From an uncultured delta proteobacterium (GTDB lineage: Bacteria > Desulfobacterota > Desulfobacteria > Desulfobacterales > B30-G6), in NCBI GenBank assembly GCA_963701385.1, contig CAVOZW010000017.1:1481-65480 (forward strand): 64,000 nucleotides of DNA. The letters run 5' to 3'. Numbering within the stretch: position 1 is the stretch's first letter; every line of letters starts with the position of its first letter. Positions 1-34,510 of the stretch are shown here, piece by piece. The position numbers and the translations under genes were made by a program. A model generated the notes under the pieces. That model saw only the letters and a program-made list of their open reading frames with translations. It had not been told where the DNA came from and made no database searches.

Positions 1-816
1 CTCCACAATTTTAAGCGCCTTATTCAGCTCTAACACCATTTCAGCCCCGGTTTGGAATCGATCGTCAGGATTCCTTGACAGGCTTTTCATGATCATATCC
101 GAAAGCGATTGAGGTATGAAGGGGTCGATCTGTACCGGCGGGTCGGGTGTATCCTGTATGATTGCGCTCAAAATGGCGGTTATGTTGCCGCCATTAAATG
201 GCCGCCGCCCGACAGCGAGCTCATAAAGAATCACACCCAAGGAATACAGATCTGAGCGGCCGTCGATCGGTGAGCCCATCGCCTGTTCTGGTGACATGTA
301 TACGGGTGTTCCCAGTAGTTCACCAGCCTGGGTTTGCTGCATCGCTGAGGGATCTTCAATACGAGCAATACCGAAATCGGTAAGTTTAACCCGTCCCTCA
401 TCGGTCAGGATTATATTTGAAGGTTTGATGTCCCGATGAACAATTTTCTTTTTATGCGCATAGTCCAGTGTCTCAGCTACCTGTACACCGATATCGATTA
501 TTTTATCAATTTCAAGTCGGCTACCGCGCATCACTTCATCAAACGGCTTTCCCTCGAGGTATTCCATCGCAATGTATATGGTGTTATGGTCCTGACCAAC
601 ATCATACACCGTAACGATATTGGGATGAGAAAGTCTGCCGATAGCCTTAGCCTCTTTTACAAATCTTAGGACAAAATCCTCACTTACCATCCGGTCTGGA
701 CGAAGGACCTTCAAGGCGACTGGCCTTTCGATCTGGGGATCGTGGGCTAGATATACCACTCCCATATTACCTTTCCCCAGCTCTTTTTGGATCCTGTATC
801 TTCCGTATTCTGTCAT
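1..816 (-). CDS. Hanks-type Ser/Thr protein kinase, catalytic domain; the 3' end runs off the window
   Basis: Reverse translation from the ATG at 816-814 reads MTEYGRYRIQKELGKGNMGVVYLAHDPQIERPVALKVL...HRDIKPSNIIL...DFGIA...GTPVYMSPEQ. These are the G-loop, catalytic Lys, HRD, DFG and APE-like motifs. There is no stop inside the window, so the ORF track omits it. Its ATG overlaps the PP2C stop codon (ATGA). Confidence 0.9.
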   Translation of the reverse strand, partial: MTEYGRYRIQKELGKGNMGVVYLAHDPQIERPVALKVLRPDRMVSEDFVLRFVKEAKAIGRLSHPNIVTVYDVGQDHNTIYIAMEYLEGKPFDEVMRGSRLEIDKIIDIGVQVAETLDYAHKKKIVHRDIKPSNIILTDEGRVKLTDFGIARIEDPSAMQQTQAGELLGTPVYMSPEQAMGSPIDGRSDLYSLGVILYELAVGRRPFNGGNITAILSAIIQDTPDPPVQIDPFIPQSLSDMIMKSLSRNPDDRFQTGAEMVLELNKALKIVE

Positions 817-1544
817 TCACACACCATCGAAAGAACCACGGTAATATTATCGTTTCCACCCGCGGATAATGCCTTGCCGATGAGGTCTTCCACTTTTTGG
901 TGTAGTCCGGCGCCGGTTGTCAGAACATCTGCAATCGCATTACTGTCAACCATATCCGTTAAACCATCAGAACAAATTAGGTATTGATCGTCCTGGCGAA
1001 TATTTCCCCGGATGATGTCGAGTTGTAGGTCCGCTTCGACCCCCACTGCCCTGAGAATGATATTCCGCATGGAATGAACTTCCGCTTGCGGTACTGATAT
1101 GAGTCCCTGATCCAGCTGTTCCTGAACCAATGAATGGTCTTTGGTGAGTTGTTTAAGTCGGTTGTTTCGGAACTGATACGTCCTGCTGTCGCCCATGTGG
1201 CCAATGACAAACCGGTTTTTTGAAAAGACAAGCAGTTCTGCGGTACATCCCATTCCTTGTAAATGGGGATTTTCATCAACATAATTTAAAATGCTTTGGT
1301 TTGCATGCCAAAAAGTCCGTTGAACCGCATCAATTTGATCTGCTTCAGACGTATGGCTGCCGGATGATAAATTTTCGCTGGCTGCTTGAGCAAAAAATCG
1401 GCTGGCGCGCTCTCCACCCGCCATACCGCCCATGCCATCGGCGACCAGACAAAAGCCTCGGTCCTGATCAAATAAGAATATATCTTCGTTGTTTTGACGC
1501 ACCAAACCAACATCTGTTTTTCCGAAAAAGCGTATCATATTCAT
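813..1544 (-). CDS. PP2C-family Ser/Thr protein phosphatase
   Basis: 243 aa. N-terminus FGKTDVGLVRQNNEDIF, then ADGMGG and a C-terminal GGNDNITVV, all typical PPM/PP2C motifs. Translationally coupled to the downstream kinase. Confidence 0.9.
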   Translation of the reverse strand: MNMIRFFGKTDVGLVRQNNEDIFLFDQDRGFCLVADGMGGMAGGERASRFFAQAASENLSSGSHTSEADQIDAVQRTFWHANQSILNYVDENPHLQGMGCTAELLVFSKNRFVIGHMGDSRTYQFRNNRLKQLTKDHSLVQEQLDQGLISVPQAEVHSMRNIILRAVGVEADLQLDIIRGNIRQDDQYLICSDGLTDMVDSNAIADVLTTGAGLHQKVEDLIGKALSAGGNDNITVVLSMVCE

Positions 1545-1752: not shown

Positions 1753-2646
1753 ATGCCCTCCGTACCCAACATAATCGTTCAGTTAGTGCACATAGCTGGC
1801 CCACTGAAGGGGGAAATCCAGGAAATTTCAGATCCGGAAATCGTAATCGGCAGACGCTCATCATGCCAGGTCCAATTCCCAAAAGACCTCGCCATTATAT
1901 CCCGCAGACACGCAACCATCATAAGGGAAGGAAACCGCTTTCGCCTAATCGACGAAAGTGCCAACGGTACTTTTTTAAATGGAAAAGGAGTTAGCGAAGC
2001 TCAACTTAAAGACGGCGACGTCATCATGTTTGCCAAGGACGGGCCTAAACTGAGTTTTCTTACTAAGATGGATCAGACTGTTGCATCCAATAAACCTGTT
2101 AGGGAAATAGATCACCGACCTTCAACATCTGGCGGTGTCTTCTCGCCGCCGGCCTCTCCGATGATATCAGATTCTCATTCACCAGAATCCGCCGAACCCA
2201 CCCCGCGAAAAACAAAAGCGCCACTTGTCATTCAATATGGGCCGACGCTACAATCATATAATGAATTGCCGATTACCATGGGCAGCGATGCCGACTGCGA
2301 TTTTGTAATGCACCACCCCTCGGTGTTGCAGAGACATGCACAGATCTTTTTCAGTGAAGATAACTATTGGATTAAAGACTTGACCGGCAAGCAGTCCGTA
2401 TCAATCCACGACGCACCCATTGATAAACAAGCAATGCTGAGACCTGAAGATGTATTGACATTGGGCAACCAGGGTCCGACTTTTCGTTTTCTGGGCGGCG
2501 GGCGTCTTGCTGAAATCGAACAAACTGATTCTACACCGGCCGCCGATCAGACCGAAGGGAGCCGCGAGCAAGCGGACTTGGGGAAATCCAACACCAAGAG
2601 CAAAAAAAGGTCGGCTTCACTATTCAGAAAATTCTTTTCCAGTTGA
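1753..2646 (+). CDS. Protein with two FHA domains
   Basis: 297 aa. FHA1: IVIGRRSSCQVQF...ISRRHATIIREGNRFRLIDESANGTFLNG. FHA2: ITMGSDADCDFVM...LQRHAQIFFSEDNYWIKDLTGKQSVSI. A Pro/Ser-rich linker and a basic C-terminal tail. Divergent from the PP2C/kinase pair. Confidence 0.85.
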   Translation: MPSVPNIIVQLVHIAGPLKGEIQEISDPEIVIGRRSSCQVQFPKDLAIISRRHATIIREGNRFRLIDESANGTFLNGKGVSEAQLKDGDVIMFAKDGPKLSFLTKMDQTVASNKPVREIDHRPSTSGGVFSPPASPMISDSHSPESAEPTPRKTKAPLVIQYGPTLQSYNELPITMGSDADCDFVMHHPSVLQRHAQIFFSEDNYWIKDLTGKQSVSIHDAPIDKQAMLRPEDVLTLGNQGPTFRFLGGGRLAEIEQTDSTPAADQTEGSREQADLGKSNTKSKKRSASLFRKFFSS

Positions 2647-2819: not shown

Positions 2820-4385
2820 ATGAAGCAATACAATCCAATCAGTTTTAAAATACTGGCGATGGCACCATTTCACCATCCAGCAAAAAATAACGGGCCAAAA
2901 TGTGCTATCGCAGTAAATGCCATGGCATTGGACAGCGTCATGGCCGAACTCAAGCCTAATTTCAAGCTGCCTTTGCCACAAACCCTTTGTCCCAAAGGTG
3001 GGATCGAAATCACTTGCTCGTGGCTGCAGGACTTTCATCCGGACTCTTTGGCACGAAATACGCCTTTGCTGAGGCATCTACTGGAGGCCAGAGGCTTCCT
3101 GGAAAAGGCCCGGGCATCAAACAAACCCCAAAGGGAGATAAAAGACCGCCTGAATCAATGGCCAGATCTGCCGGAACTCACCCAAGGCCTCAATATATTA
3201 AAATCAGACCCTGCATCCCAACCGCTGGATCGTTTATTGGAGTTGGTCGACCTTCCCCGGGAAATATCGACATCCACGATAAAAAATACAAGGTTCAATG
3301 GGAATGTAGAAACCATCATCCAAAAAACATTTGAGGCCATATTTCAGCACCAGCCTTTCAAATCGGCAGAGGCGGCATGGCTCGGATTAAATCTGTTACT
3401 GCAAAAAAAAACCGGCCATAAACAAGTGACAGTTTACCTAGCCTCAGCGTCCCGTGACACGCTCCAGGAGACCCTGAATCGACTCCTGCCGGAAATGATT
3501 GACAAGCCACCAACCCTTATCGTTGTTGATTTGCCATTCAGCAACTCGGCGCGCGATCTCGAGCTGATTAAGGCCGTTGCCACATTTTCAGAAACACTTC
3601 TGGCACCGTCGCTGTTATGGATCGGTCCTGAATTTTTCCATCTTAAAACCTGGAATGATCTAAACAAACGACCGTATTTGCCCCATTTTCTTGAGACGAC
3701 CCCCTATGCCAAATGGCGGTCGTTAAAACAGACCGATATGGCTAATTGGCTTATCGTCACCTGCAATTGTTTTGTTCTGCGCTACCCCTACGGGCCGCAT
3801 AACAAACCCAGTTTGTTAGATTTTGAAGAAACCGGCCTGCCCTGGTTGGCACCGGTGTGGGCAATTGCCGACCTGATTGTTCAAAGCCATCTGAAGACAG
3901 GCTGGCCGACGCGATTTACGGATTGGCAGCGGTTCCGTGTGGATGGCCTGGCAATGCAATCCGGTTCCACGGGCCGGTACCCCACAGAAACGATTTTCAG
4001 CATGGATCGCGCCGATCAATTGATACGATCGGGCATCACGCCCCTGATCGGCATTGCGAACAGAGACTTTGTGTGCACACCCATGGAAACCAGTCTGGGT
4101 GGCAGATCGATAGGCGATCAAATCTATCTTTCAATAATAATTGATTATATTATCAAATTGCATGAAAGTGGACAAATCGACTCTAAAGATGACATGCTTG
4201 AAAATGATATTCGGAAATCACTGATTCAATTTCTGGGAGCCAGCCTTGAGCCTACCGCCGATGCCTTGTATGTTTCCACCGGACCGGTCGATTCCAACGG
4301 TCGGTTTCCGTTGGCTATAAGGATCTTACCTGAGGGAACCATTCCGCCACTGAGACATCCCATCGAACTGACTTTCAGCTGGTAG
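2820..4385 (+). CDS. Single-chain TssB-TssC (VipA-VipB)-like sheath paralog
   Basis: 521 aa. The N-terminal ~100 aa is colinear with the window's TssB: FKILAMAPF vs LKILVMGDY, and LQDFHPDSLARNTPLLRHLLEARGFL vs MKDFQPEQVVKNTPELNKLLELREAL. The rest is colinear with TssC: FKSAEAAWLGLNLLL vs FQKLESSWSSLKYMV, APSLLWIGPEFF vs CPFIAAADPQFF, and YAKWRSLKQTDMANWLIVTCNCFVLRYPYG vs YVKWQSFRDSDDARNVALALPRFLLRLPYD. Confidence 0.6.
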   Translation: MKQYNPISFKILAMAPFHHPAKNNGPKCAIAVNAMALDSVMAELKPNFKLPLPQTLCPKGGIEITCSWLQDFHPDSLARNTPLLRHLLEARGFLEKARASNKPQREIKDRLNQWPDLPELTQGLNILKSDPASQPLDRLLELVDLPREISTSTIKNTRFNGNVETIIQKTFEAIFQHQPFKSAEAAWLGLNLLLQKKTGHKQVTVYLASASRDTLQETLNRLLPEMIDKPPTLIVVDLPFSNSARDLELIKAVATFSETLLAPSLLWIGPEFFHLKTWNDLNKRPYLPHFLETTPYAKWRSLKQTDMANWLIVTCNCFVLRYPYGPHNKPSLLDFEETGLPWLAPVWAIADLIVQSHLKTGWPTRFTDWQRFRVDGLAMQSGSTGRYPTETIFSMDRADQLIRSGITPLIGIANRDFVCTPMETSLGGRSIGDQIYLSIIIDYIIKLHESGQIDSKDDMLENDIRKSLIQFLGASLEPTADALYVSTGPVDSNGRFPLAIRILPEGTIPPLRHPIELTFSW

Positions 4386-4657: not shown

Positions 4658-5458
4658 TTATTTAAGTTGAACCATATACATATCTGCCCCCGCTCCCTCG
4701 GTGTAGGGACCGAAAATAATTGTATCTGGAAAACCGGCCACTTGTGCATAATAAGCGGTTTCCGGATTGATCTCATTTTGAACGGCCCAGGCGGTAAATT
4801 CCTTTTTACCATGAGTGATCTTCATGCCCCTGAGAGGATGCTCCAGAACGGATTTCTCAGGGAGCTTTCCAGTGGTGCCCACAGCTTGAAAGCTGATGTC
4901 AGCACCACAAACACCAAAAATCACGCCCGGCCATCTTTCATGTTGTGGTCTTACTTCAAACCACTGACCCACTTGTTGGTTGCCATGTATATCAATATGA
5001 TAATAGATATCTTTTGGCTTGGTAACCGCATGGATCTTGGCCACTAATTTGGCGCCCAGAGACGTATCTAACGCCTTTAGAATATCGATGCTTTCAAGGG
5101 GTGTCGGCAGCTTATCCGATTTGATGGTATTTTCACCGCTTTGCAGGATTATGATGGGGAAGACTGGTCCCCTTTTGGCATGCACCGCAATTGTGAGCAG
5201 CGAAAGACCATATCGAATCGAGGGCTTCGAAAAATCTTCGGCCTTGCCCAGTATCAACCAGAGGGCCGGTTTTTTGTCAATCAGAGCCTCAAGTCCACTG
5301 ATCCATGCCATTGATTTCAAGTCATCCAGCCAAATGTTTCCCGTGGTTTCCAAACCGTAAGTTTCCAGACCGGCAATCAATTTGGCGACTGTTTTTCCGG
5401 AAATACCCAGTGAGGTAAGCCATATAGGTTGCATGGTTACTCCTTTCAGTTGGAACAC
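4658..5458 (-). CDS. Hypothetical protein (alternating beta/alpha N-terminal half, beta-rich C-terminal half)
   Basis: 266-aa ORF with plausible coding composition. The internal Met at 5434 (MQPIWLTS) is an alternative start. I recognise no family. Convergent with the fused sheath gene. Confidence 0.5.
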   Translation of the reverse strand: MFQLKGVTMQPIWLTSLGISGKTVAKLIAGLETYGLETTGNIWLDDLKSMAWISGLEALIDKKPALWLILGKAEDFSKPSIRYGLSLLTIAVHAKRGPVFPIIILQSGENTIKSDKLPTPLESIDILKALDTSLGAKLVAKIHAVTKPKDIYYHIDIHGNQQVGQWFEVRPQHERWPGVIFGVCGADISFQAVGTTGKLPEKSVLEHPLRGMKITHGKKEFTAWAVQNEINPETAYYAQVAGFPDTIIFGPYTEGAGADMYMVQLK

Positions 5459-14172: not shown

Positions 14173-15636
14173 CTACTGGGTTGCGCCAAGCGGGTTCTCG
14201 AAATTAAATCCGAAAAGGCCCGGATTTTCACCGATCACTGCCGCTGAAAAAATATAGAAAACATAATCGTAGGTTTCTTTTGGGATTCTGTTTCTATACC
14301 TTGTCAGCATCTGCCAAAAATTGCGTTCTCTGGGATTTTGCGGCATACTTTGAATCAAATCGATGACCCGGCGTTCTCCCCAGTTATAGGAGGCCATGAC
14401 CAATAGTCCCGAGGCTTGCGCTTCGGTTGTATAAATATCGCTGAGATATCGGGCCGCGGCCAGCGTCGATCTGCCGAAATGATGCCGCTCGTCCCTGGGA
14501 TCGGGTTTACGCTCCTCCACCAGGGGTCCGGGCCTCAATCCGTAGTTAGCAGCGGTGGTGGGGATAAATTGCCACATACCCTTGGCTATACCCCAGCGTG
14601 TTTTGGGACCGCAGGCATTGATGTCAAACCCGCTTTCCTGAAGCGCCAGATAAAGAAACTGAGGCGGCAGGCCGTACTCTTGCATGGTATAAATGATTTT
14701 TGGAATATAGTGATTGTCCCTTGCCCTTTGAATCGCATTGTTCAATCGTTGGGTTGCTTTCCACTTCTCAATGTAAACCATGACCTCTTCAACAAACTCT
14801 TTGGGTGTATTAATTTCACACTCACCAAAAGACCTGGCCATCCTCAGGATCAGTTGTTCCGCTTCACTGATCCCCTTGCCATACACCTTGAGAGTGTCTA
14901 AAAATTGGTTGTAGCTGTCCTCCAGCTGCATCTGCCTGGCTCTGAATTGTATGATCTGCTCCCGTGATTTGCTGCTGTCCGTCATGGCGACCGATTTCAT
15001 AACCTTGGCGAGTTCTATTTCGAGTGATCGCATGTTGTAAAAAATATCGGCCGCTAATTTACGCTGTTTGTTTGCCTTCAAGGTGTTCATAACGGCGTAT
15101 CCGCCGGTTATCAGCAGAAGACTTACCACCAGAGCGATAATCCAGGTATACTTTCGCTTTTGCTTTTTGTGGATCTCGGCAAAAGCCTGCCGAACCATCA
15201 TGGTGTGCGCGCCCACGGTGTCGTCTTTGGTATCGCCGAAATAGTGCTTTTTGTAATGGGTGAGCGTACGGGAGTCGGTAGTGGTGGTTTCCTTCTGCGG
15301 TATTTCCGGCACCGTCATTTCCAGGACGGGGCCGGTGGGTCCCAGTTGTACCTGGTGCTGACCGGTTAGCGGGGTGCGGTCGATTCGGTTCCCATCGACA
15401 AAGGTGCCGTTGCCGCTGTTATTATCCTCGATCCACCAGTTTTCATGCTCGATGAAGACCCTGGCATGAACCCGGCTGACCATGAGATTTTTTATCTGTA
15501 TATCACAGTTTTTCTCACGCCCGATGCTGAAATTTTTGCTGAAAGAACCCTTCTGATAATCAGATTCGCCACCTTCGAACTTGACCTGGATCTCAGGAGG
15601 AGATGGAGACGAATTGTTCATGGAAGGGATACTCAT
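14173..15636 (-). CDS. FHA domain - TM helix - lytic transglycosylase (SLT) domain fusion protein
   Basis: 487 aa. FHA: FSIGREKNCDIQI...VSRVHARVFIEHENWWIEDNNSGNGTFVDG. TM: YTWIIALVVSLLLITGGYAVM. SLT: FLYLALQESGFDINACGPKTRWGIAKGMWQFIPTTAANYGL, containing the catalytic Glu-Ser motif. Confidence 0.8.
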   Translation of the reverse strand: MSIPSMNNSSPSPPEIQVKFEGGESDYQKGSFSKNFSIGREKNCDIQIKNLMVSRVHARVFIEHENWWIEDNNSGNGTFVDGNRIDRTPLTGQHQVQLGPTGPVLEMTVPEIPQKETTTTDSRTLTHYKKHYFGDTKDDTVGAHTMMVRQAFAEIHKKQKRKYTWIIALVVSLLLITGGYAVMNTLKANKQRKLAADIFYNMRSLEIELAKVMKSVAMTDSSKSREQIIQFRARQMQLEDSYNQFLDTLKVYGKGISEAEQLILRMARSFGECEINTPKEFVEEVMVYIEKWKATQRLNNAIQRARDNHYIPKIIYTMQEYGLPPQFLYLALQESGFDINACGPKTRWGIAKGMWQFIPTTAANYGLRPGPLVEERKPDPRDERHHFGRSTLAAARYLSDIYTTEAQASGLLVMASYNWGERRVIDLIQSMPQNPRERNFWQMLTRYRNRIPKETYDYVFYIFSAAVIGENPGLFGFNFENPLGATQ

Positions 15637-26850: not shown

Positions 26851-27324
26851 TTATTGAGATGGTACATCAAAACTCATCAGTATCTTATCAACTTTTCCTC
26901 TTAGCATTTTCCACGTTTTTTTTGAAAATGTGGCATTGAGTATATAACCTGTGTTATTTCTCGTCAGGTAAATGGCTCGCTGGTAAACTTCCCTGTTATC
27001 AACCGGACACCACTTATAGACAATATCAACTCCTTGAATTCCACTTAAAAATGTGATCTTTCCCCGTTTCAGTTCCTGGTAGCCTTGCATTTCACCTTCC
27101 ACAGCCCTGATATTTTTAGCAGCATACTTTTCAAAATTCTGTTCGTCGATATTATTTTCGATCGTTACATAAATATTGTGGCGGATACCATCCTCTTCAG
27201 GACCTTCATAGCGGTATACCGACTGATCCTTCCAATCCGTTGGCAATCTTAAATTGAATCGGTTATTTAATATAATAAAAGCAGAGTTCTGATTGTTTTG
27301 GTCTGTTTTCTTCTTCTTGAACAT
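26851..27324 (-). CDS. DUF1795 (DcrB/Eag-family) T6SS effector chaperone-like protein
   Basis: 157 aa. The pattern FNLRLPTDWKDQSVYRYE...NIYVTIE...QGYQELKRGKITFLSGIQGVDIVYKW...YQRAIYL...YILNATFS...KILMSFDV matches the DUF1795 layout as I remember it. Lies directly downstream of the PAAR gene. Confidence 0.6.
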   Translation of the reverse strand: MFKKKKTDQNNQNSAFIILNNRFNLRLPTDWKDQSVYRYEGPEEDGIRHNIYVTIENNIDEQNFEKYAAKNIRAVEGEMQGYQELKRGKITFLSGIQGVDIVYKWCPVDNREVYQRAIYLTRNNTGYILNATFSKKTWKMLRGKVDKILMSFDVPSQ

Positions 27325-27343
27325 GCAGCACCGACTTGTTTTA

Positions 27344-27751
27344 TTAATCAGGTTGGTTGGCTATATTCGGAAACTTCACATCACAATTTCCGGGAGGAAC
27401 TTCTTCCTCTTTTCTATATCCATTTCCATCAAGCTTGCCTTTTCTAATTTCGCCGTTGGCTAGATACAGAATATATTCCTCATTTGGAATTGGATTATCC
27501 TCGTTGTCCAATAGCTCGATTTCAAGATAATCTTTGAACTCCAGAATATCCGACCTGGTCCTCTGGTTCTTAACTTTTACAAAGAAATAGTATTCCGGTG
27601 CCGAGTAGCCCTTTTTCTTGTCGGATTCTGAGTCCTCGTCCTCATCTTCGTGATATTCGTATTCCCATTCTGCTTCGACTTTGCCTCCGTCTACCTCTGG
27701 CTTCGATCTCCTCGATAAAATCGTCCGAACCAGTGATATCTCTGTTCCCAT
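27344..27751 (-). pseudogene. C-terminal extension module of the PAAR protein, detached by an in-frame TGA
   Basis: 135-aa ORF in the same frame as the PAAR ORF, separated only by TGA-AAT. Contains VEAEWEYEYHED...PEYYFF and LEFKDYLEIELL...EYILYLANGEIRKGKLDGNG...PPGNCDVKF modules homologous to ORF 22746-24200. Its first ~30 codons match the paralog better in another frame. Confidence 0.45.
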
Positions 27752-27754
27752 ATT

Positions 27755-28435
27755 TCAATCCTGGCGGTTGTTGCCATCCTCGAAACCTTCCACTTCTGCG
27801 GTCAGTTTAACCACATCGCCGACCCTGGCCTCGTCTTGCGACCACTTGGCGTTATAAACCGCGAAAAGCTTGACCGTGTAATCACCTTCGTCCGGCAGCC
27901 CGCTTCGTTTGATGCGGCCGTCGCCGGTCAGGATTCCTTTGGAAGTATTCCCACCCGGGTCGGTCAATTCGTACTCGACTTCGGTGATCGGGTTGCCGGC
28001 CGAATCCACGAACTGGCAGTCGATCCAGTGGGGTCCTTCTTTTTCGGGGCCTGGCTCGCCCACCAAAGCGGAGTAGGCGCTGGCCTTGGCAGCCGCTGCA
28101 GCACCGCCGCCCCCGCCACCACCGCCGCCCCCGCCAGTCTCGCCAATCAGGACCGTCATGCAGCCCAGGACGATGGCGTCGGGCGGGCCGGTGCAGACGG
28201 CCATGTCGCCCATACGGGCTGCCGGCATACCACCGATGAGAACCCCGGCGCTCCCCAGGGATATGGGCCCACCCACATGGGGCACCGGTGCGGGTGCCGG
28301 CGTCACCATGGGGCACACATGCATATCGCCGAGTCGCGCCGCCGGCATGCCACCAATGAGCACGGTGGGGCATCCGGCCACGATAGTGCCGCCATGGGCG
28401 GTCATGTCGCCGATTCTGGCCGCGGGTTTACCCAA
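27755..28435 (-). CDS. PAAR-domain protein (T6SS spike tip) with a poly-Gly linker and beta-sandwich-like extension
   Basis: TTG start with GGAGG 5 nt upstream. Three PAAR motifs (PAARIGD, PAARLGD, PAARMGD), then a G11A5 linker. The C-terminal module ends WSQDEARVGDVVKLTAEVEGFEDGNN. Confidence 0.9.
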   Translation of the reverse strand: MGKPAARIGDMTAHGGTIVAGCPTVLIGGMPAARLGDMHVCPMVTPAPAPVPHVGGPISLGSAGVLIGGMPAARMGDMAVCTGPPDAIVLGCMTVLIGETGGGGGGGGGGGAAAAAKASAYSALVGEPGPEKEGPHWIDCQFVDSAGNPITEVEYELTDPGGNTSKGILTGDGRIKRSGLPDEGDYTVKLFAVYNAKWSQDEARVGDVVKLTAEVEGFEDGNNRQD

Positions 28436-28554
28436 TGATTCCTCCCTGAAAAATTATTATTTTTTGAATTCTGAATGAATGTATTCTATGCATTGTAGAA
28501 AATAGCCATCTCGCCAACTCAAAACGAAAAACTTACAATTCACAATTGCCCTGC

Positions 28555-30771
28555 CTAGTTGATCATCACAATCGCTCCGGATATGGTCGTCTTGGCACCA
28601 CCCTTGAGCTCCGCCATGGTACTGCCCTCGACCTTGGCCGACAGGCCGCCCTTGGCTTCCATATTCATGCCGCCCTCGATCTTGGCGTCCATGTCGGCCT
28701 TGATCTCAACATTCATGGCCTTGAGCGAGATTTCGTTGGCCTCCAATGCGATTTTGCCGCTGGACGCCGTAATGTTGATATCCCCGCCCGACTCAATGGT
28801 GATGGTGGAGCCCGCATCCAGCTTGACGATGTTGCCGCCGGCATCCTCGATGGTCACGTTGTCGTTGTCGTCGTCCAGGGTGATGTGGTGGCCGCTGCTG
28901 CTGGCCAAACTAATTTTCTTTTGATCGTCGTCCAGGATGGCGCTGTGACCCTCTGTTGTGGTCAATTCTATTTTCTTGTTCTCGTCGTCAAACAGGAATT
29001 TGTGGCCGTCCGTGGTCTGGGTGGTGATCTTTTTGTTCTCGTCGTCAATCTCCAGCGTGTGCCCGTTGGTCGAGCTCAGCACGATCTTCTTGTTCTCGTC
29101 GTCGAACAGCAGCTTGTGGGCGTTGGTGGTCTCGATGGCGATCAGCTTGTTTTTATCGTCCATGGACACTTTGTGCTGGTCGCGGGTTTCGATGGTCAGG
29201 ATCTGCTCTTTTTCATCCATGGTCAGCTTGTGGCCGTAGGCGTTCAACAACACCACCCGGGTTTCCTTGGATTTGTCTTCCATCAGCAGTTCGTTAAACG
29301 ACCCGCCTCCCGGGGTGGTCTGCGAACGCAGGGCGCTCTTGGTCTTTTGGTCCGGCAGCTTGTAGGGCGGCGTGTTGGTGCCGTGATAAACCCGGCCGGT
29401 GATCAGGGGTTTGTCCGGGTCCCCTTCCAGAAAGTCCACCACCACCTCCTGGTCGACGCGTGGGATGTGCATGGCGCCCCATCCGGCCCCGGCCCAGATC
29501 TGACTGACGCGGATCCAGCAGGAGCTTTTTTCGTTTTTCTTCCCCACACGGTCCCAGTGGAATTGCACTTTCACACGACCGTGTTCATCCGTGTAGATCT
29601 CTTCGCCGGCAGGCCCCACTACGATGGCTGTCTGGATGCCCTGAACAATGGGCTTGGGGGTTTTGCGCAGGGGCCGGTAAACCACGTCGGAAGGGATGCC
29701 GCTGAACTTGTTGCTGTAGCTGAATCCCTCTGTACCGGCCTGCTCTTCCAGCACCTGGGGCTGGGATCCGAAATGGCTGATGTCGGTTAACAAATACTCC
29801 TTTTCAAAACTGCTCAGATCGTGCCCTTCCAGCTTGAAGGTAAATCCGGGAACCAGGCGCGGGCAGTTGCTCTGTCCTTCAACGCTTTCCAAAAAGACAC
29901 GGCCCTCGTCCAGACGGATGTTGGCCAGGGCATCTCCGCGAGCATCTTCGATGTAGTCGCCCGGATAGTCGTACTGCTCGATCTCGGTATGGGTATTGGC
30001 TTCCTTGTGCCGCAGCAGCTTGGCCGAGGGTTTCAGAAAATTGAAATCTTTGAGGGACACCTTTCCCGTGGATATTTGGCGCGAGTGCGCCACAGTCTGG
30101 ATGGTTTCCTTGGTGACCACCATACCGGCCCCCGTCCGGACCGCGATTTCCACCTGATTGTCGTCATTTTTCTCACCCTGGATAGGCCGGTAGATACCGG
30201 CACTGTCGGCAAAGACCAGCAGGTGATTTTCCTCGTCGTGCTCGAAAAAGTAGAAAATGCCTTCCGCCTCTGCCAAACGGGAAATAAAATTCAAATCGGT
30301 TTCGCGGTACTGGACACAATAGTCCATTTTTTCGTAGCTACCCTGCAACCGGAATTCGAATCGGTCCGAAGTGATGCCGGCTTCGGTCAGAACCTCCTCG
30401 ATAATTCCTTTGACGTCCTTTTCCTGGAATATGCGGCAGTCCTGCGCCAGGGAGAGCAGCCAGAGGGTCGGTACCAGTGTGGCTTTGTACAGAAAAAATC
30501 GCCTGGTGCTGCCGGTTTGCCAGAATTTATTGACGATGCCGTGAAAGTGACGCTCCGAATCCGTTTTGAGGCCAAAGATCGATAGCAGACCGATTTCACC
30601 GACGACATCGTCAAAGGTCACTTCCACCTCGTCATCGCGTGTGGCCAGTGTGAGATCGACTTCAAACGGTGTGGAGATGTCCTCTCTGGCTGAAAAAGCC
30701 ACGACCCGGAGTTGCCGCCCGCCGGCCTTGAATAGAAAGCTCTCCTCGTCCGCCGATCTGAAATCAGCCAT
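28555..30771 (-). CDS. vgrG: VgrG (TssI) spike protein
   Basis: gp27/gp5-like sequence: FHGIVNKFWQTGS, YCVQYRETDLNFISRLAEAEGIFYFFEH, VKVQFHWDR, WIRVSQIWAG. C-terminal beta-helix repeats. ATG at 30771 with GGAGGA upstream is preferred over the track's TTG at 30783. Confidence 0.93.
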   Translation of the reverse strand: MADFRSADEESFLFKAGGRQLRVVAFSAREDISTPFEVDLTLATRDDEVEVTFDDVVGEIGLLSIFGLKTDSERHFHGIVNKFWQTGSTRRFFLYKATLVPTLWLLSLAQDCRIFQEKDVKGIIEEVLTEAGITSDRFEFRLQGSYEKMDYCVQYRETDLNFISRLAEAEGIFYFFEHDEENHLLVFADSAGIYRPIQGEKNDDNQVEIAVRTGAGMVVTKETIQTVAHSRQISTGKVSLKDFNFLKPSAKLLRHKEANTHTEIEQYDYPGDYIEDARGDALANIRLDEGRVFLESVEGQSNCPRLVPGFTFKLEGHDLSSFEKEYLLTDISHFGSQPQVLEEQAGTEGFSYSNKFSGIPSDVVYRPLRKTPKPIVQGIQTAIVVGPAGEEIYTDEHGRVKVQFHWDRVGKKNEKSSCWIRVSQIWAGAGWGAMHIPRVDQEVVVDFLEGDPDKPLITGRVYHGTNTPPYKLPDQKTKSALRSQTTPGGGSFNELLMEDKSKETRVVLLNAYGHKLTMDEKEQILTIETRDQHKVSMDDKNKLIAIETTNAHKLLFDDENKKIVLSSTNGHTLEIDDENKKITTQTTDGHKFLFDDENKKIELTTTEGHSAILDDDQKKISLASSSGHHITLDDDNDNVTIEDAGGNIVKLDAGSTITIESGGDINITASSGKIALEANEISLKAMNVEIKADMDAKIEGGMNMEAKGGLSAKVEGSTMAELKGGAKTTISGAIVMIN
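28860..29240 (-). repeat. Coding ~57-nt (19-aa) tandem periodicity of the VgrG C-terminal beta-helix
   Basis: Successive repeat units: HKLLFDDENKKIVLSSTNG, HTLEIDDENKKITTQTTDG, HKFLFDDENKKIELTTTEG, HSAILDDDQKKISLASSSG, HHITLDDDNDNVTIEDAGG. Confidence 0.75.
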
Positions 30772-30772
30772 G

Positions 30773-33403
30773 TTATCCTCCAAAATCTATCGTAAACATG
30801 CCGTCCTCATTCAGATCCAGGTTGATCTGCGACGGCATTTCACCCTCGCTCATGCAACTCAGGATCTCCTGGGACATGCGTGGCATGATGCTGCCGCTCA
30901 TGATGTAATCGATATTCCTGGCACCGGTTTCAACCTCGGTGCAGCGAGCCGCGATCTGTTCCACCACCGCCGGAGAATAGACCAGCTTCATCTTATGGTT
31001 TTCGGCCAGTCTTCTGACCAGCTTTTCCATTTTGAGGGCCACGATCTCCTTGAGGACATCGGTCTTTAACGTCAGGTAGGGAATCAGGTTCATGCGTGCC
31101 AGAAGGGCGGGTTTGAAATGGTTGCTCAATATGGGACGGATGGCTGCGCTGATGCTTTCCAACGGCGGAACTTCATCACCGGAGCACATTTCCGTGATCA
31201 CATCGGTGGCCAGGTTGCTGGTCAGGAAAATGACCGTGTTCTTGAAATCGATCAGCCGGCCCTCGCCATCGGAGAGCATGCCTTTGTCGAAAACCTGGTA
31301 AAACAGGTTCATCACCTCCAGGTGCCCTTTCTCCACTTCGTCGATGAGCACGACCGAATAAGGCCGTTGACGAACGGCTTCCGTGAGGACACCCCCCTCA
31401 CCATAGCCCACATACCCGGGCGGCGATCCGATCAAGCGGCTGACGGTGTGTTTCTCCTGGAACTCGCTCATGTTAATGGTCACCATAAAATTTTCGCCGC
31501 CAAACAGGAGGTCGGCCACCGCCAGGCCGGTTTCGGTCTTGCCCACGCCGCTGGGACCGGCCAGCATGAACACACCCATGGGCTGATTGGGATCCTTAAC
31601 CCCGGCCTTGGCAGCCTTGATCACCCGGGTGAGACTATCCAGGGCCCCATCCTGGCCCTTGATGCGTGCTTTCAAATTCTCCCCCAGATTGATGATGCCC
31701 TTGGCCTCGTCCTTCATTACTTTCCCGAGGGGTATTCCCGTCCAGTCGGAGACCACCTTGGAAACAACGTCCGGATCCACTTCCGTGCGCACCAGCGGTG
31801 AATCACCTTGGATCCGCTGCAGGTCTTCCACCGCCGCGTTCAGTTCCGCTTTCAGGTCCGCCGCCGTCTCCCCCTCCGCCGCAGGCTTTTGCCCTGCTTC
31901 GTAAAGTCGCTGCCGAATCTCAATCACCTTTTGGGCCGCGGCCTGCTCTTCCAGCCAGCGCTCTTTGAGCGAATCAACCTCCTGGTTAAGTTTATCCAGT
32001 TCGGTCTGGGTCTCCTGGGTGCGCTCTTTATCGATCTCCATTCCGTGAAGCGCGTCGCGCTCGAGGGCCTTCTGCTCGCGCTGGAGCGCCTGCATACGGC
32101 GCTCCTTGTCTTCGATCACATCGGGTTTGGCGGTCAACAGCACCTTTACCCGCGCCGCACTGGTATCCAGCAGATCGACGGCCTTGTCCGGTAGCTGACG
32201 CCCGGAGATGTAGCGGCTGGAGAGCTCGGCCGCAGCCACGATGGCATCATCACGCACCACCACGCTATGGGCGGCCTCGTACTTGCTCTTTAGACCCCGC
32301 AGAATCAGCGTGGCAATCTCTTCGGACGGTTCGTCCAGTTTGACCAGCTGGAATCGGCGTGCCAGGGCCGCATCTTTCTCAAAATATTTCTTGTATTCCG
32401 ACCATGTGGTGGCAGCCACGGTGCGCAGCTCGCCGCGCGCCAGGGCCGGCTTTAGCAAGTTGGCCGCGTCAGACATCCCAGCGGCTCCTCCGGCGCCGAT
32501 CAGTGTGTGGGCCTCGTCGATAAAAAGAATGATCGGTTTTTCGGATGCCTTGATCTCGTTGATCACCGACTTCAGACGATTTTCAAACTCGCCCTTCATG
32601 CCGGCCCCGGCCTGGAGCAGCCCCATGTCCAGTCCCAGAATCGACACGTCGTGCAGCAACTCGGGAACGTCTCCCTCAACAACGCGCAAAGCCAGCCCTT
32701 CCACAACCGCCGTCTTGCCCACCCCAGCCTCGCCCACCACGATGGGGTTGTTTTTGCGCCGGCGGGCCAGGATATCCACCATCTGGCGGATTTCACGATC
32801 GCGCCCGAACACGGGGTCGATCTCCCCGGCCGCGGCCTTAGCCGTAAAGTTGTCGCAAAATTGGTTCAGGGCCGTTCCCTCGCCGGCTGTCACAGCTTCG
32901 CGCTGCTCGGTCGCAACGACCGAGGGCTTTTCCGTCGATCCTTTGACCGAATCCCAGAATTGAGACCTTAGCGCATCCCGGCTGATGGCCTCAAGAATGT
33001 CAACATAATCCCCGGTGGCGAACTGGGTAGGCCTGTTCAGGAATGCCAGCAGCAGGGCCCCGGAGCGCACCCGGGTCTCTTTTAAATCGACGGATCCCAC
33101 CAGCCAGCCCTCCTGGAATAACTCCATTAAAACCGGGGAAAAAACCGGTTTGGCAGCATTGCCGGTCTTGAATTCCTCCAGGGAGCGGTCGATGGCCTTC
33201 TGCAGGCGACCGGCATCAATGTCGAAATGGCGCAGGATCAACGGAAGATCTGACCGGGCGTCCTCCAACAGCTTGGAAAGCAGGTGTTCGATGGTCACTT
33301 CGTAATGGGTGCGTGATACGCATAGTCCGGCGGCTGCTTCAAGCGATCGGGTGCAATGGGTGTTCAACCGGCCTAACAGGGACTTGATGTCGACCGAAAT
33401 CAT
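30773..33403 (-). CDS. clpV: ClpV (TssH) AAA+ ATPase
   Basis: 876 aa. Walker A motifs GEAGVGKTAVVEGLA and GPSGVGKTETGLAVA. Walker B motifs ILFIDEAH and VVLIDEVEK. ClpV-type N-domain. Confidence 0.93.
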   Translation of the reverse strand: MISVDIKSLLGRLNTHCTRSLEAAAGLCVSRTHYEVTIEHLLSKLLEDARSDLPLILRHFDIDAGRLQKAIDRSLEEFKTGNAAKPVFSPVLMELFQEGWLVGSVDLKETRVRSGALLLAFLNRPTQFATGDYVDILEAISRDALRSQFWDSVKGSTEKPSVVATEQREAVTAGEGTALNQFCDNFTAKAAAGEIDPVFGRDREIRQMVDILARRRKNNPIVVGEAGVGKTAVVEGLALRVVEGDVPELLHDVSILGLDMGLLQAGAGMKGEFENRLKSVINEIKASEKPIILFIDEAHTLIGAGGAAGMSDAANLLKPALARGELRTVAATTWSEYKKYFEKDAALARRFQLVKLDEPSEEIATLILRGLKSKYEAAHSVVVRDDAIVAAAELSSRYISGRQLPDKAVDLLDTSAARVKVLLTAKPDVIEDKERRMQALQREQKALERDALHGMEIDKERTQETQTELDKLNQEVDSLKERWLEEQAAAQKVIEIRQRLYEAGQKPAAEGETAADLKAELNAAVEDLQRIQGDSPLVRTEVDPDVVSKVVSDWTGIPLGKVMKDEAKGIINLGENLKARIKGQDGALDSLTRVIKAAKAGVKDPNQPMGVFMLAGPSGVGKTETGLAVADLLFGGENFMVTINMSEFQEKHTVSRLIGSPPGYVGYGEGGVLTEAVRQRPYSVVLIDEVEKGHLEVMNLFYQVFDKGMLSDGEGRLIDFKNTVIFLTSNLATDVITEMCSGDEVPPLESISAAIRPILSNHFKPALLARMNLIPYLTLKTDVLKEIVALKMEKLVRRLAENHKMKLVYSPAVVEQIAARCTEVETGARNIDYIMSGSIMPRMSQEILSCMSEGEMPSQINLDLNEDGMFTIDFGG

Positions 33404-33499
33404 GGGATGACCTCCTTACCCGGTTGGTGCGGAATTTCAATTTCTAAGGTTTTGTGGCTTTTAAGCATTTCACTTGGACCCTTGAATGCTGAAATTTTG

Positions 33500-34510
33500 C
33501 TAGTTCAGTCGGGGCGTAAAGACCGTGCGCACTTCCTCCGGATAATCACCCGAAAATACCCAAGTGTTGGTGCCCAGCATGGCGTGCTGCGCATTGCCCA
33601 AGCATACGGTCTTTGCCTGACCCCTTGCCAGGATCAGTTCCAGGTCGTAGGCCAAGGGCTCGGTGAGGTAGAGCCTGGTTAGAAAGGCTAGCCGTTCATA
33701 GGCCTCGTTACCCGAAAAAAAGGTTTGATACACCTTTGCATTCACTGGACCCACCTGGATGCGGAACTTGCCCATGCGGTCGGCCAGCTCATGACCCAGG
33801 TATGCGTTTTTGCCCAGGGTGCCCCCGGATATGCCCAAACAGCAGCGCTGGGTTTCAGGAATCCTGGCCTTGTGTTCAACGCAGGGAATGATTGTCAGCG
33901 GAATATTACCCAAAGCATCCCGCAGCAGTGCCTTCAAACCCACGACCGATCTTGGAAACTGGGAAAAAAGCCCGGTGTAACGTAACAGCCGGTACGGTTC
34001 GGGGATCTCTTCACGAAACCCCTTTTCACCCAGCCCCAGCAGACAGAACAAACGCTCCAAGTCTGGTGCATGCTGCATTTCCAGGACCTGCAGATATTGC
34101 CGATATTTTGCCCAGCACCTGAACAGCAGCTCGTACAGGCGGTGGTTGACGATGTCGATGAAATCCCTGGAGACCGATTCATCATTGGCCTCTTCAGCGA
34201 TGAGCTCTTCTGTGTAAAAAGTTGGCAAGGGTGATGCCGTACCGTATAGCCCGAGGATGTTGGCTGTGATCAGGAACTGAACGGCCTCGGCGTCATTGCG
34301 TTCCTCAACTTTTTCCACGTCCGAAGCCGGAAAGGCCATGGAAAGATTGGGCCTGACACGGATGTTGTTCAACTCCCGGCGTCCTGCAGGACCCTTCTTT
34401 GCGGTGCCTGCCTGCAGATGACCCAACAGTCGGATAACCTGATAAAAGGAGAAGGCATGCCCCTCTTTTAGCAGTTGGCGTTTCAGATCGGTTTTGAATG
34501 CCGTTGTCAT
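33500..34510 (-). CDS. tssG: TssG baseplate protein
   Basis: Motif FSFYQVIRLL near the N-terminus. ATG at 34510 overlaps the tssF stop (ATGA), so it is preferred over the track start at 34543. Confidence 0.85.
   Translation of the reverse strand: MTTAFKTDLKRQLLKEGHAFSFYQVIRLLGHLQAGTAKKGPAGRRELNNIRVRPNLSMAFPASDVEKVEERNDAEAVQFLITANILGLYGTASPLPTFYTEELIAEEANDESVSRDFIDIVNHRLYELLFRCWAKYRQYLQVLEMQHAPDLERLFCLLGLGEKGFREEIPEPYRLLRYTGLFSQFPRSVVGLKALLRDALGNIPLTIIPCVEHKARIPETQRCCLGISGGTLGKNAYLGHELADRMGKFRIQVGPVNAKVYQTFFSGNEAYERLAFLTRLYLTEPLAYDLELILARGQAKTVCLGNAQHAMLGTNTWVFSGDYPEEVRTVFTPRLN

Follow-up and report, generated by a model that had tools for sequence, protein, structure and literature searches.

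In the stretch of DNA that was analysed (64,000 nt, hereafter the window), the gene at 14173..15636 of the minus strand (487 aa, ATG start) encodes a protein in which an FHA domain, a single transmembrane (TM) helix and an SLT domain follow one another. This FHA-TM-SLT protein is somewhat likely to be a T6SS-associated accessory protein that joins a Thr-phosphorylation pathway to the cleavage of peptidoglycan in the periplasm, with the mechanism and the direction of signalling as the parts that we infer. Since genes of this kind recur beside T6SS genes and kinase/phosphatase genes in several phyla, a link between phospho-signalling and the opening of the wall is probable. FHA-SLT fusions were not found described in the freely searchable full-text literature. 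The coupling of phosphorylation in the cytoplasm to cleavage of the wall is likewise undescribed in that literature, which agrees with what had been supposed from the letters of the sequence.

First of all, the two end domains that had been recognized in the open reading frame are both matched by Pfam above the gathering cut-offs: FHA (PF00498) at residues 37–99 with 62.2 bits (cut-off 20.7), and SLT (PF01464) at residues 315–431 with 49.0 bits (cut-off 21.3). The database protein P0001 is 100% identical to the gene product. The predicted cytoplasmic FHA domain (residues 16–108; 15313..15591, minus strand, as are all parts of this gene) is a beta-sandwich in the AlphaFold model (mean pLDDT 82.9 for the whole protein) and reaches a target-normalised Foldseek TM-score of 0.87 against FHA-1 of Rv1747 (6ccd). 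It is followed by a conserved cytoplasmic juxtamembrane motif (residues 124–163; 15148..15267), which reads HYxxHYFGD...GEH-T145-MMVR...KKQKRKY, and in which Thr145 (15202-15204) may serve as phospho-acceptor or as ligand of the FHA domain. The single TM helix (residues 164–186; 15079..15147), which had also been predicted, is the only strong hydrophobic segment, with a mean Kyte-Doolittle value of 2.23 over 19 residues and a next best value elsewhere of 1.27, and the hydropathy scan found no N-terminal signal peptide. The region behind it (residues 187–320; 14677..15078), assigned from the model helices and from conservation, is a predicted periplasmic helical hairpin and helical region that no Pfam model matched. 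In the model, a continuous helix (143–219) traverses the membrane and is followed by helices 222–248 and 258–320, so the coiled coil proposed for this place stands as a helical region and takes the form of a hairpin (143–219 and 222–248). This region contains the GECE motif (G271-E-C-E274; 14815-14826). Foldseek with the full-length model gave only FHA matches among the 50 matches listed, and none for the periplasmic region or GECE. Finally, the predicted periplasmic SLT domain (GH23, family-1-type lytic transglycosylase; residues 321–475; 14212..14676) contains the motifs LALQESGF and GMWQFIPTTA that had been pointed out, together with the predicted catalytic pair E334-S335 (14632-14637).

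The topology is N-in/C-out as judged from sequence, with the FHA domain predicted in the cytoplasm and the SLT domain in the periplasm. Hydropathy, the charges flanking the helix and the model all place the two domains on opposite sides of the membrane, just as the sequence-only reading had it: in the 15 residues on each side of the TM helix, K+R averages 6.05 on the N side vs 2.46 on the C side, and is higher on the N side in 79 of 80 homologues. The residues expected of a working reader and a working enzyme are conserved. The pThr-contacting residues of the FHA domain (Gly-Arg, Ser-x-x-His and Asn, that is G39, R40, S54, H57 and N76) are kept, together with R55, in 78/78 homologues, which are those of the 80 examined that span the region. 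In the SLT domain, E334, S335, G353, Y417, N418 and G420 are kept in 80/80 and Q356 in 79/80, so that the catalytic Glu of the E-S motif, G-x-x-Q and Y-N-x-G are all present. Moreover, the GECE motif is invariant at G271, E272 and C273 (80/80) and kept at E274 in 79/80. T145 is kept in 79/80 homologues and is invariant in an alignment of 120 sequences, and the residue at +3 is aliphatic (V/I/L/M) in all 80; T145-x-x-(V/I/L/M) may be a phosphosite or a ligand of the FHA domain. Lytic transglycosylase activity, phosphorylation and an FHA ligand are what we infer for this protein.

FHA-SLT proteins are a conserved, distinct family without a name. The family comprises about 609 clusters at 50% identity (E<=1e-30) and was found in 436 species genomes, with hosts in Desulfobacterota, Acidobacteriota, KSB1, Ignavibacteria and Caldithrix; identity across phyla is high (47–60%), and all of the best 120 matches to the protein contain both FHA and SLT. 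Fused relatives also exist and, as Rosetta-stone evidence, speak for the proposed tie between phospho-signalling and the wall enzyme. Two FHA domains are fused to the TM-periplasmic-SLT module in P0121 and P0176, and in the rare relatives P0237 and P0262 a Hanks kinase domain takes the place of FHA on the same module. The kinase-SLT fusions lie next to ECF sigma/GroESL or glycosyltransferase genes, on short contigs that showed no T6SS genes. Therefore, the periplasmic module is not intrinsically specific to T6SS.

The kinase fusions bear on the direction in which the signal would run. It is conceivable, though rather unlikely, that the protein is a sensor working from outside to inside: the SLT module would bind, and perhaps nick, peptidoglycan and report the state of the wall, such as damage or gaps that arise from growth or from the attack of a neighbour, and the clustering of ectodomains would place the FHA domain to capture a phosphorylated kinase or T6SS components. 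In that case, the state of the wall would set where and when the T6SS fires, instead of phosphorylation setting the site of the cut. In P0237 and P0262, a Hanks receptor kinase has the same ectodomain as its extracytoplasmic part, a position which in PknB-type kinases is held by ligand-sensing domains such as PASTA. In addition, sensor genes of the TagQRST type are absent among the families detected in the window, and an FHA domain, which reads and scaffolds, is compatible with either direction of signalling. However, the active site argues for a working enzyme and not for a sensor that only binds: its catalytic Glu-Ser and further motifs are invariant across the FHA forms (80/80) and persist in the kinase-SLT fusions; and a single-pass reader protein has no evident means of generating a signal alone.

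The reading in which phosphorylation acts on the wall is consistent with the content of the window, where a T6SS, TagF, a kinase, a PP2C phosphatase and a double-FHA protein are encoded together. The complete T6SS gene cluster (26851..48307, minus strand), assigned by Pfam and, for TssE, by NCBIfam, contains a DcrB-like adaptor, PAAR, VgrG, ClpV, TssG, TssF, TssE, Hcp, TssC, TssB, TssA, TagF, TssM, TssL, TssK and TssJ. At the left end of the window lies the N-terminal part of a Hanks-type Ser/Thr kinase (1..816, minus; GKGNMGVVY, HRDIKPSN, DFGIA), which extends past that end and whose ATG at 816 shares 4 nt with the stop codon of a PP2C Ser/Thr phosphatase (813..1544, minus). The latter matches PP2C_2 and PP2C in Pfam and belongs to the Stp1 family (NCBIfam Stp1_PP2C_phos, 234.3 bits, cut-off 230). 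They are followed by the double-FHA protein (1753..2646, plus; 297 aa, two FHA domains), a divergent fused TssB/TssC-like protein (2820..4385, plus; 521 aa, Pfam VipB and T6SS_VipA) and the cl8 protein (4658..5458, minus; 266 aa), for which no Pfam or NCBIfam family matched. Since the TssB/TssC-like protein scores 87.8 bits against an NCBIfam cut-off of 271.5, it is a paralogue and not a sheath protein. FHA domains in the window occur solely in the FHA-TM-SLT and double-FHA proteins, and canonical TagH is absent from it. The sequence-only reading had named neither the strand of the FHA-TM-SLT gene nor the kinase, the PP2C, the double-FHA protein and the TssB/TssC-like paralogue.

The FHA-TM-SLT gene lies between these two groups. 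Caspase and repeat-protein genes fill the roughly 9 kb between it and the kinase module, and about 11 kb of open reading frames without family assignment (15796-26803) separate it from the PAAR/adaptor genes. It had been proposed that T6SS/cargo genes end about 160 nt upstream: the common direction with the T6SS cluster and the gap (159 nt to the upstream reading frame) hold, but the nearest reading frames have no family assignment. A scan of 12000-17500 found no terminator-like site on the minus strand and no convincing promoter in this gap. A shared transcript with the upstream reading frames, and with it the proposed place at the tail of the T6SS transcription unit, is possible.

The co-occurrence with T6SS and PpkA-like kinases that had been put forward was counted in 33 homologous loci with full 10-kb flanks, with T6SS defined strictly by VgrG, ClpV or TssFGJKLM within 10 kb. 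T6SS structural genes lie within 10 kb in 16/33 of these loci, a Hanks kinase or PP2C likewise in 16/33, and one or the other in 24/33; the Hanks kinases are recurrent neighbours of the family. The binomial P for the linkage is about 6e-19 against a null of 2%, a value which overstates the significance because the loci share phylogeny and are not independent. A looser T6SS count of 19/33 is inflated, since the iterated PAAR HMM had drifted onto cargo-like proteins and the TssC labels covered the TssB/C-like paralogue; the drifted matches are the 484-aa reading frame of the window and those in L048 and L080. All parts of the sequence-only reading that could be tested by computation passed, and its interpretation is partly supported.

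The linkage to T6SS is kept in at least four different gene orders. In Desulfobulbales the order is ClpV-VgrG-DUF2169-PAAR-like-[FHA-SLT]-cl8-cl9...PP2C-trypsin-kinase, with cl8 directly downstream of FHA-SLT. This order was confirmed in Desulfocapsa sulfexigens DSM 10523 from called genes and precomputed Pfam, where the FHA-SLT gene stands inside the T6SS operon, 10 nt after the PAAR-like gene and 8 nt before cl8. The order is TssJ-K-L-M-TagF-[FHA-SLT] in L012 and TssF-G-ClpV-VgrG-DUF4280-[FHA-SLT] in L004, L009 and L051. In the Acidobacteriaceae, [FHA-SLT]-PP2C stands beside divergent TssM-L-K in L053 and L065, and L073 has the divergent TssM-L-K with PP2C not detected. Moreover, clustering places homologues of the double-FHA protein beside the FHA-SLT gene in 15 loci and an HMM does so in 22, the TssB/TssC-like paralogue also occurs in L081 and other loci, and cl8 (cluster 8) is present in 10 loci, lying 0–171 nt downstream of FHA-SLT in the nine besides the window. 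A T6SS-associated gene (TAG) is an accessory gene encoded within T6SS loci (PMC13584744), and by its recurrent location in or beside such loci FHA-SLT qualifies as one.

A role exclusive to T6SS is not supported by all loci: in 8 of the 33, the 10-kb flanks contain neither a T6SS gene nor a kinase gene, and the genes found there are of unrelated, housekeeping-like kinds. Among the 105 neighbour proteins of these 8 loci, Pfam (families matching >=2 proteins, that is, at least two) found no recurring T6SS or kinase family. On the family tree, linked copies are intermixed with unlinked ones. The unlinked loci favour general envelope homeostasis, in which a lytic transglycosylase controlled by Ser/Thr kinases would serve growth, division or envelope stress by a logic like that of the actinobacterial FHA proteins which tie Hanks kinases to cell-wall synthesis, and its proximity to T6SS would be a secondary effect of a kinase module that regulates T6SS as well. 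The identity across phyla has a housekeeping-like look, the surroundings of the kinase-fused forms have no tie to T6SS, and the best NCBIfam match of the FHA domain is actinobacterial FhaB/FipA (54 bits vs 28 bits for TagH). Against this stand the T6SS structural genes in nearly half of the loci and in several gene orders, the position between PAAR-like and cl8 genes in a T6SS operon with gaps of 8–10 nt, and the place directly after TagF in L012; in addition, genes for division or cell-wall synthesis are not among the recurrent neighbours of FHA-SLT. The neighbourhood analysis thus lowered a purely housekeeping role to a minor and improbable alternative, which is kept because of the unlinked loci.

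Many loci place FHA-SLT right after PAAR-like, DUF4280 or DcrB-like adaptor genes, and the known classes of T6SS effectors include glycoside hydrolases that act on peptidoglycan, so it was also considered whether the SLT domain is a peptidoglycan-degrading toxin sent via the neighbouring VgrG/PAAR spike into rivals. This reading is very improbable and was rejected. Against it stand the internal TM helix, the N-terminal FHA domain whose pThr pocket is invariant, and the strong conservation of the protein across phyla, whereas the reading frames at 15796-26803 have almost no homologues among the 80 loci. The cl8 and cl9 proteins start without signal peptides, and are therefore unlike periplasmic immunity proteins. 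The gene also occupies positions that are not those of cargo, after TagF and beside PP2C/TssM, and Pfam and NCBIfam found no PAAR, MIX, Rhs or other effector delivery domain in the protein.

As an accessory protein of T6SS, the FHA-TM-SLT protein resembles several known systems in part. Its overall plan is like that of YscD/PrgH of type III secretion, components of a secretion machine with a cytoplasmic FHA fold, one TM helix and a periplasmic domain; it scores 39.5 bits against Pfam Yop-YscD_cpl (cut-off 33.2), and 4d9v is among the Foldseek matches. However, the FHA-like domains of type III secretion are not known to have the residues that bind pThr, and the periplasmic parts of these proteins build rings and are not known to be enzymes, whereas the FHA-TM-SLT protein has the invariant pThr pocket and a predicted SLT enzyme as its ectodomain. 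In sequence, the SLT domain is closest to the MltD type: MltD is its best NCBIfam match (NF008050, residues 306–468), though at 50.1 bits, far under the cut-off of 508, and over the SLT region only, and the closest solved sequence is the LysM-domain protein 8rhe (E 2e-11). The FHA domain, TM helix and periplasmic helical region are absent from MltD, and neither LysM repeats (Pfam) nor a lipoprotein signal (hydropathy scan) was found in the FHA-TM-SLT protein.

Local cleavage of peptidoglycan by MltE or TagX is needed for T6SS assembly (PMC13584744; PMC9251886), and a 2026 review of T6SS accessory factors names these two alone as wall remodelers. MltE is recruited by the Sci-1 T6SS of enteroaggregative E. 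coli (Santin & Cascales 2017, via PMC13584744, PMC9251886). It is likewise a family-1 (SLT/GH23) lytic transglycosylase, whose local cutting enables the assembly of TssJLM and which is controlled by contact with TssM. But MltE is a housekeeping lipoprotein of the outer membrane, encoded outside the T6SS locus and without a cytoplasmic domain, whereas the FHA-TM-SLT protein is a predicted bitopic inner-membrane protein without signal peptide or lipobox, has a cytoplasmic FHA domain and is encoded in or beside T6SS loci. TagX of Acinetobacter and Burkholderia is similar in being encoded in the T6SS locus, in its inner-membrane anchor and periplasmic C-terminal catalytic domain, and in its proposed role of opening the wall for T6SS assembly or firing. 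It differs in its enzyme, a VanY-type L,D-endopeptidase acting on peptide cross-links, which has another fold and another chemistry than SLT, and in having no FHA or other signalling domain; Acinetobacter is without the PpkA/PppA/Fha pathway (PMC9251886). The enzyme domain of the FHA-TM-SLT protein is SLT, without a VanY-type match, and no peptidase family was assigned to the protein by Pfam or NCBIfam.

TagH/Fha1 (of P. aeruginosa H1, A. tumefaciens and S. marcescens) resembles the other end of the protein. It has an N-terminal FHA domain, is proposed to trigger assembly when it reads pThr, and shares its T6SS loci with genes for a Hanks kinase (PpkA), PP2C (PppA) and TagF; the FHA protein Fha is a target of TagF (PMC13584744; PMC9251886). 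It is, however, soluble and cytoplasmic and has a characteristic C-terminal region, and the FHA-TM-SLT protein adds a helix across the membrane and an enzyme domain in the periplasm. The match to TIGR03354 (TagH) covers the FHA region only, with 28.4 bits against a cut-off of 120.25, so the protein falls outside that family.

From these parts, a sequence of events can be proposed. The kinase encoded in the locus would make a phosphothreonine mark, for which the candidates are the invariant Thr145-x-x-(V/I/L/M) of the FHA-TM-SLT protein itself, the kinase, or a component of the T6SS membrane complex or baseplate. The FHA domain would read this mark, and the reading would recruit or cluster the protein where the TssJLM membrane complex forms, so that the SLT domain could then cut peptidoglycan locally, while the PP2C phosphatase would reset the system. 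The protein would in this way merge the role of TagH/Fha1, a pThr-dependent trigger of assembly, with the role of MltE or TagX as remodeler of the wall. In its most specific form, which is put forward tentatively and may well be wrong, this is a transmembrane phospho-switch, in which the kinase and PP2C would steer the clustering or the activity of the periplasmic transglycosylase via FHA and T145, and in which this enzyme would license the T6SS membrane complex at a chosen site and replace TagH.

The candidate key residues are E334, the FHA pocket, T145 and the GECE motif, and the cultured hosts are Desulfocapsa sulfexigens DSM 10523 and Desulfopila sp. IMCC35008. Many proteins now labelled 'MltD' or 'FHA domain-containing protein' belong to this one distinct unnamed family, which is part of a wider uncharacterised conserved module together with the double-FHA protein, the TssB/C-like paralogue, cl8, cl9, PP2C, a trypsin-like protease and the kinase. 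How T6SS passes through peptidoglycan is an open question in most species, with only MltE (recruited) and TagX (an endopeptidase) known, and so is the way in which the FHA protein of the threonine phosphorylation pathway starts assembly. The occurrence of the FHA-SLT fusion in T6SS loci of several understudied phyla suggests that in these systems both steps are one. If this is true, the protein would rank as the first lytic transglycosylase that is dedicated to a T6SS and encoded in its locus, and as a direct physical link from a threonine phosphorylation pathway to peptidoglycan remodelling, and TagH would be replaced by it in a large group of environmental T6SSs in Desulfobacterota, Acidobacteriota and others.

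The FHA-SLT gene is an open reading frame on the minus strand, which starts with ATG, spans exactly 14173–15636 and encodes 487 amino acids. The sequence-only reading described the product as an FHA domain, one transmembrane (TM) helix and an SLT domain, leaving out the strand, and this was found to be right by Pfam, hydropathy and AlphaFold2: the FHA domain (residues 37–99, 62.2 bits) and the SLT domain (residues 315–431, 49.0 bits) both exceed their Pfam cut-offs (20.7 and 21.3), the single strong hydrophobic segment covers residues 164–186, and no signal peptide was found. No full-length NCBIfam family was found for the protein, and its best matches there are at the domain level, namely FhaB/FipA (54 bits), MltD (50 bits, cut-off 508) and TagH (28 bits, cut-off 120). 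In the AlphaFold2 model, built on 120 homologues with a mean pLDDT of 82.9, the FHA beta-sandwich (residues 16–108) and a disordered linker (113–123) are followed by one continuous helix (143–219) that starts next to the membrane in the cytoplasm, crosses it and extends into the periplasm, a return helix (222–248), a helical region (258–320) and a lysozyme-like helical domain (325–475). The FHA fold is supported by Foldseek (target-normalised TM-score of 0.87 to FHA-1 of Rv1747), and the solved structure nearest to the SLT domain by sequence is the LysM-domain protein 8rhe. Among 80 homologues, the 15-residue flanks of the TM helix contain on average 6.05 Lys and Arg on the N-terminal side versus 2.46 on the C-terminal side, with the same bias in 79 of them; by the positive-inside rule, which the family follows clearly, the FHA domain is predicted to be cytoplasmic and the SLT domain periplasmic, on opposite sides of the membrane as had been supposed. 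That is to say, the protein is predicted to be bitopic, with a cytoplasmic phosphothreonine (pThr) reader and a periplasmic lytic-transglycosylase active site that both appear intact.

The 120 best database matches all contain FHA and SLT, with 52–86% identity over the full length, and an exhaustive profile search (E ≤ 1e-30) gave about 609 clusters at 50% identity. The family is encoded in 436 species-representative genomes from Desulfobacterota, Acidobacteriota (Bryobacterales and Terriglobia), KSB1, Ignavibacteria and Caldithrix, and the protein is no one-off fusion. The pThr-binding residues G39, R40, S54, H57 and N76 are kept in all 78 homologues covering them; among the 80 genomic homologues, the SLT motif residues E334, S335, G353, Y417, N418 and G420 and the periplasmic residues G271, E272 and C273 are invariant, while Q356 and E274 are each kept in 79. 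Moreover, the juxtamembrane Thr145 is kept in 79 of the 80, and the residue at its +3 position is aliphatic in every one. Since pT-x-x-(I/L/V) is a classic FHA ligand, Thr145 is proposed as a candidate phosphosite.

The genomic neighbourhood was studied in 80 loci with two flanks of up to 10 kb each, in which ORFs were called, neighbours were clustered, and labels were given by iterated HMM and Pfam searches. The recurrent neighbours are VgrG, ClpV, TssK, TssL, TssM and TagF, DUF2169 and pentapeptide proteins, a TIGR02270 HEAT protein and, directly upstream of FHA-SLT, PAAR-like proteins (PF13665 or DUF4280); on the opposite side recur two conserved families without a name (cl8 and cl9), a TssB/TssC-like paralogue, a double-FHA protein, a PP2C phosphatase, a trypsin-like protease and a Hanks kinase. 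In a strict count of the 33 loci that extend 9 kb or more to each side of FHA-SLT, not scoring the TssB/TssC-like paralogue as core T6SS, a T6SS structural gene lies within 10 kb in 16 loci, a kinase or PP2C gene in 16, one or both of these in 24, and any gene of the module in 26 (binomial P about 6e-19 against a generous random expectation of 2%, a significance that is overstated, the loci not being fully independent). FHA-SLT is thus recurrently encoded with T6SS genes and the kinase/PP2C/double-FHA module, as the proposed co-occurrence requires. The linkage holds across differing gene orders: FHA-SLT follows a PAAR-like gene in Desulfobulbales, comes straight after TagF in locus L012 and after DUF4280 in L004, L009 and L051, and lies beside divergent TssM-L-K genes in Acidobacteriaceae. 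An independent check on called genes and precomputed Pfam labels of the cultured Desulfocapsa sulfexigens DSM 10523 gave the order TssG, ClpV, VgrG, DUF2169/pentapeptide, pentapeptide protein, DUF3540, PAAR-like, FHA-SLT, cl8 and cl9, with gaps of 10 and 8 nt flanking FHA-SLT; beyond cl9, the opposite strand carries VipB-like and double-FHA genes, after which come PP2C, trypsin and kinase genes.

Neither T6SS nor kinase genes are near in 8 of the 33 loci, mostly from Acidobacteriota, and a Pfam scan of their 105 neighbour proteins found no recurring T6SS or kinase family; linked and unlinked copies are interleaved in the family tree. A general envelope role for the protein, which these unlinked loci favour and the recurrent T6SS linkage speaks against, is considered improbable. 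Since the VgrG gene of the window itself ends about 13 kb from the FHA-SLT gene, with the T6SS just past 10 kb, some "unlinked" loci may be false negatives. In addition, the genome CP070707.1 ("bacterium bin522") carries two paralogous FHA-SLT genes (L048 and L071), one adjoining VgrG, DcrB-like adaptor, PP2C and kinase genes, and the other having only a kinase gene, 85 nt upstream; the pair would make a useful natural comparison of T6SS-linked and unlinked copies.

In the window, a complete T6SS (26851–48307), with TssJ, K, L, M, TagF, TssA, TssB, TssC, Hcp, TssE, TssF, TssG, ClpV, VgrG, PAAR and a DcrB-like adaptor, lies upstream of the FHA-SLT gene on the same strand. Between the DcrB-like adaptor/PAAR genes and FHA-SLT, 159 nt from the latter, are seven co-directional ORFs of 475, 924, 236, 630, 484, 664 and 171 aa (15796–26803, minus strand), none with a family match above a curated cut-off. 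They are almost without homologues elsewhere, some being matched only in L048 and L080, there too between T6SS spike genes and FHA-SLT, and they probably encode cargo of the T6SS and immunity proteins. A long acidic run of D and E marks the 475-aa ORF, and a weak M6-metalloprotease-like match was found in the 924-aa ORF. That FHA-SLT, the next gene in the row, is itself a cargo effector is judged very unlikely, the family keeping its FHA and SLT residues in widely differing lineages. Directly upstream of tssJ (48304–51259, minus strand), two proteins of 250 and 733 aa without a family match have homologues at the same position in L012 (20–2643, plus strand; 37% and 28% identity), and are candidate extra accessory genes of this T6SS type. 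TssL (45703–46380, minus strand) is just 225 aa with a DotU domain; no peptidoglycan-binding extension was detected on it, nor any OmpA-like or TagL-type protein among the ORFs scanned, and it is speculated that the FHA-SLT ectodomain might double as wall anchor.

Downstream, 44 nt from FHA-SLT, lies the gene of a secreted caspase-PEGA-FGE-sulfatase protein (12233–14128, minus strand); as it also follows FHA-SLT in the four nearest related loci (L001, L002, L006 and L016), the two may be co-transcribed in this lineage. Together with genes for an ELWxxDGT-repeat protein of 1120 aa (8839–12201), a DUF4384 protein (7315–8220) and a caspase (6022–7290), all on the plus strand, it forms a block (6022–14128) that parts FHA-SLT from the other genes of the module to which it usually belongs. 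These genes, unmentioned in the sequence-only reading, are those of cl8 (266 aa; 4658–5458, minus strand), a divergent fused TssB/TssC-like protein (521 aa; 2820–4385, plus strand), the double-FHA protein (1753–2646, plus strand), the PP2C phosphatase (813–1544, minus strand) and a Hanks Ser/Thr kinase (1–816, minus strand), which has a 4-nt overlap with the PP2C stop codon and continues past the edge of the window. By an FHA-profile census, the FHA domains of the window are solely those of FHA-SLT and the double-FHA protein; therefore, its T6SS has TagF, kinase and phosphatase, and canonical TagH is absent. The 521-aa protein joins a TssB-like N-terminal part to a TssC-like sheath domain (87.8 bits against an equivalog cut-off of 271.5), and is distinct from the real TssB/TssC (37673–39660). 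About 11 loci, such as L081 (13093–14661) and L023 (13038–14603), both minus strand, keep it within the kinase/PP2C/double-FHA module. Possibly it is a paralogue of the sheath that serves in regulation or as a decoy; we know no description of it. In Desulfobulbales T6SS loci, cl8 (about 265 aa) and cl9 (about 255 aa; L023 12270–13037 and L081 12280–13047, plus strand) directly follow FHA-SLT with gaps of 0–171 nt, and neither has a Pfam or NCBIfam match or a signal peptide; in the window, cl8 is shifted by about 9 kb, and no cl9 gene was found between 4173 and 25636, the part searched.

The architecture varies among relatives. Two (P0121 and P0176) have two FHA domains, and in two others (P0237, L084 3636–5876; P0262, L083 10001–11986) a Hanks kinase domain replaces FHA on the same TM-periplasmic-SLT module, with the catalytic motifs kept and the T145 motif not clearly kept; the latter two resemble receptor kinases whose ectodomain is a lytic transglycosylase. 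Two independent connections thus tie the module to Ser/Thr signalling. On their short contigs, the kinase fusions stand outside T6SS contexts, adjoining ECF sigma/GroESL or GH130/glycosyltransferase genes, and therefore the phospho-signalling link is broader than T6SS, the FHA form being the one embedded in T6SS loci. Given the unlinked loci and these fusions, the role does not appear to be exclusive to T6SS. A GH130/GH130/unassigned-ORF cluster just past the T6SS (53184–59083, minus strand) resembles the GH130 and glycosyltransferase cluster of L083 (118–6891, minus strand), about 3 kb from the kinase-SLT gene, perhaps by chance or perhaps because the neighbourhood is shared.

The kinase fusions also lend some support to the main rival, in which the direction is reversed and the ectodomain senses or marks the state of the wall, setting where signalling and assembly happen; the invariant catalytic residues speak against a binding-only sensor, and we regard this reading as possible but rather doubtful. 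On the whole we lean, with limited confidence, towards recruitment by a kinase mark: the FHA domain would read a pThr that the kinase had placed on Thr145, on the kinase or in a T6SS component, the protein would be recruited or clustered at the nascent TssJLM complex, where SLT would open the peptidoglycan, and PP2C would reset the system. TagF, which antagonises Fha (PMC9251886), may act likewise on FHA-SLT. This wall-opening interpretation is consistent with all the computational tests applied (domains, topology and co-occurrence), the mechanism itself being unproven.

As read here, the protein is, like MltE, an SLT enzyme that makes way in the wall for the T6SS membrane complex; it is also, like TagX, a locus-encoded, inner-membrane-anchored periplasmic hydrolase, and it resembles TagH/Fha1 on the cytoplasmic side. 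However, it lacks the lipoprotein features of the MltD/MltE type, differs from TagX in fold and scores below the TagH cut-off, and it is a member of none of them. A 2026 review of T6SS accessory factors names as wall remodelers only TagX and MltE, the latter not locus-encoded, and mentions no FHA-fused enzyme (PMC13584744); in the searchable literature no paper with both "FHA domain" and "SLT domain" was found, other searches being likewise negative, which agrees with the earlier view that the coupling is undescribed. What is new here, although its mechanism is unproven, is a proposed wall remodeler that is associated with T6SS and carries, in fusion, the pThr reader known from the threonine phosphorylation pathway.
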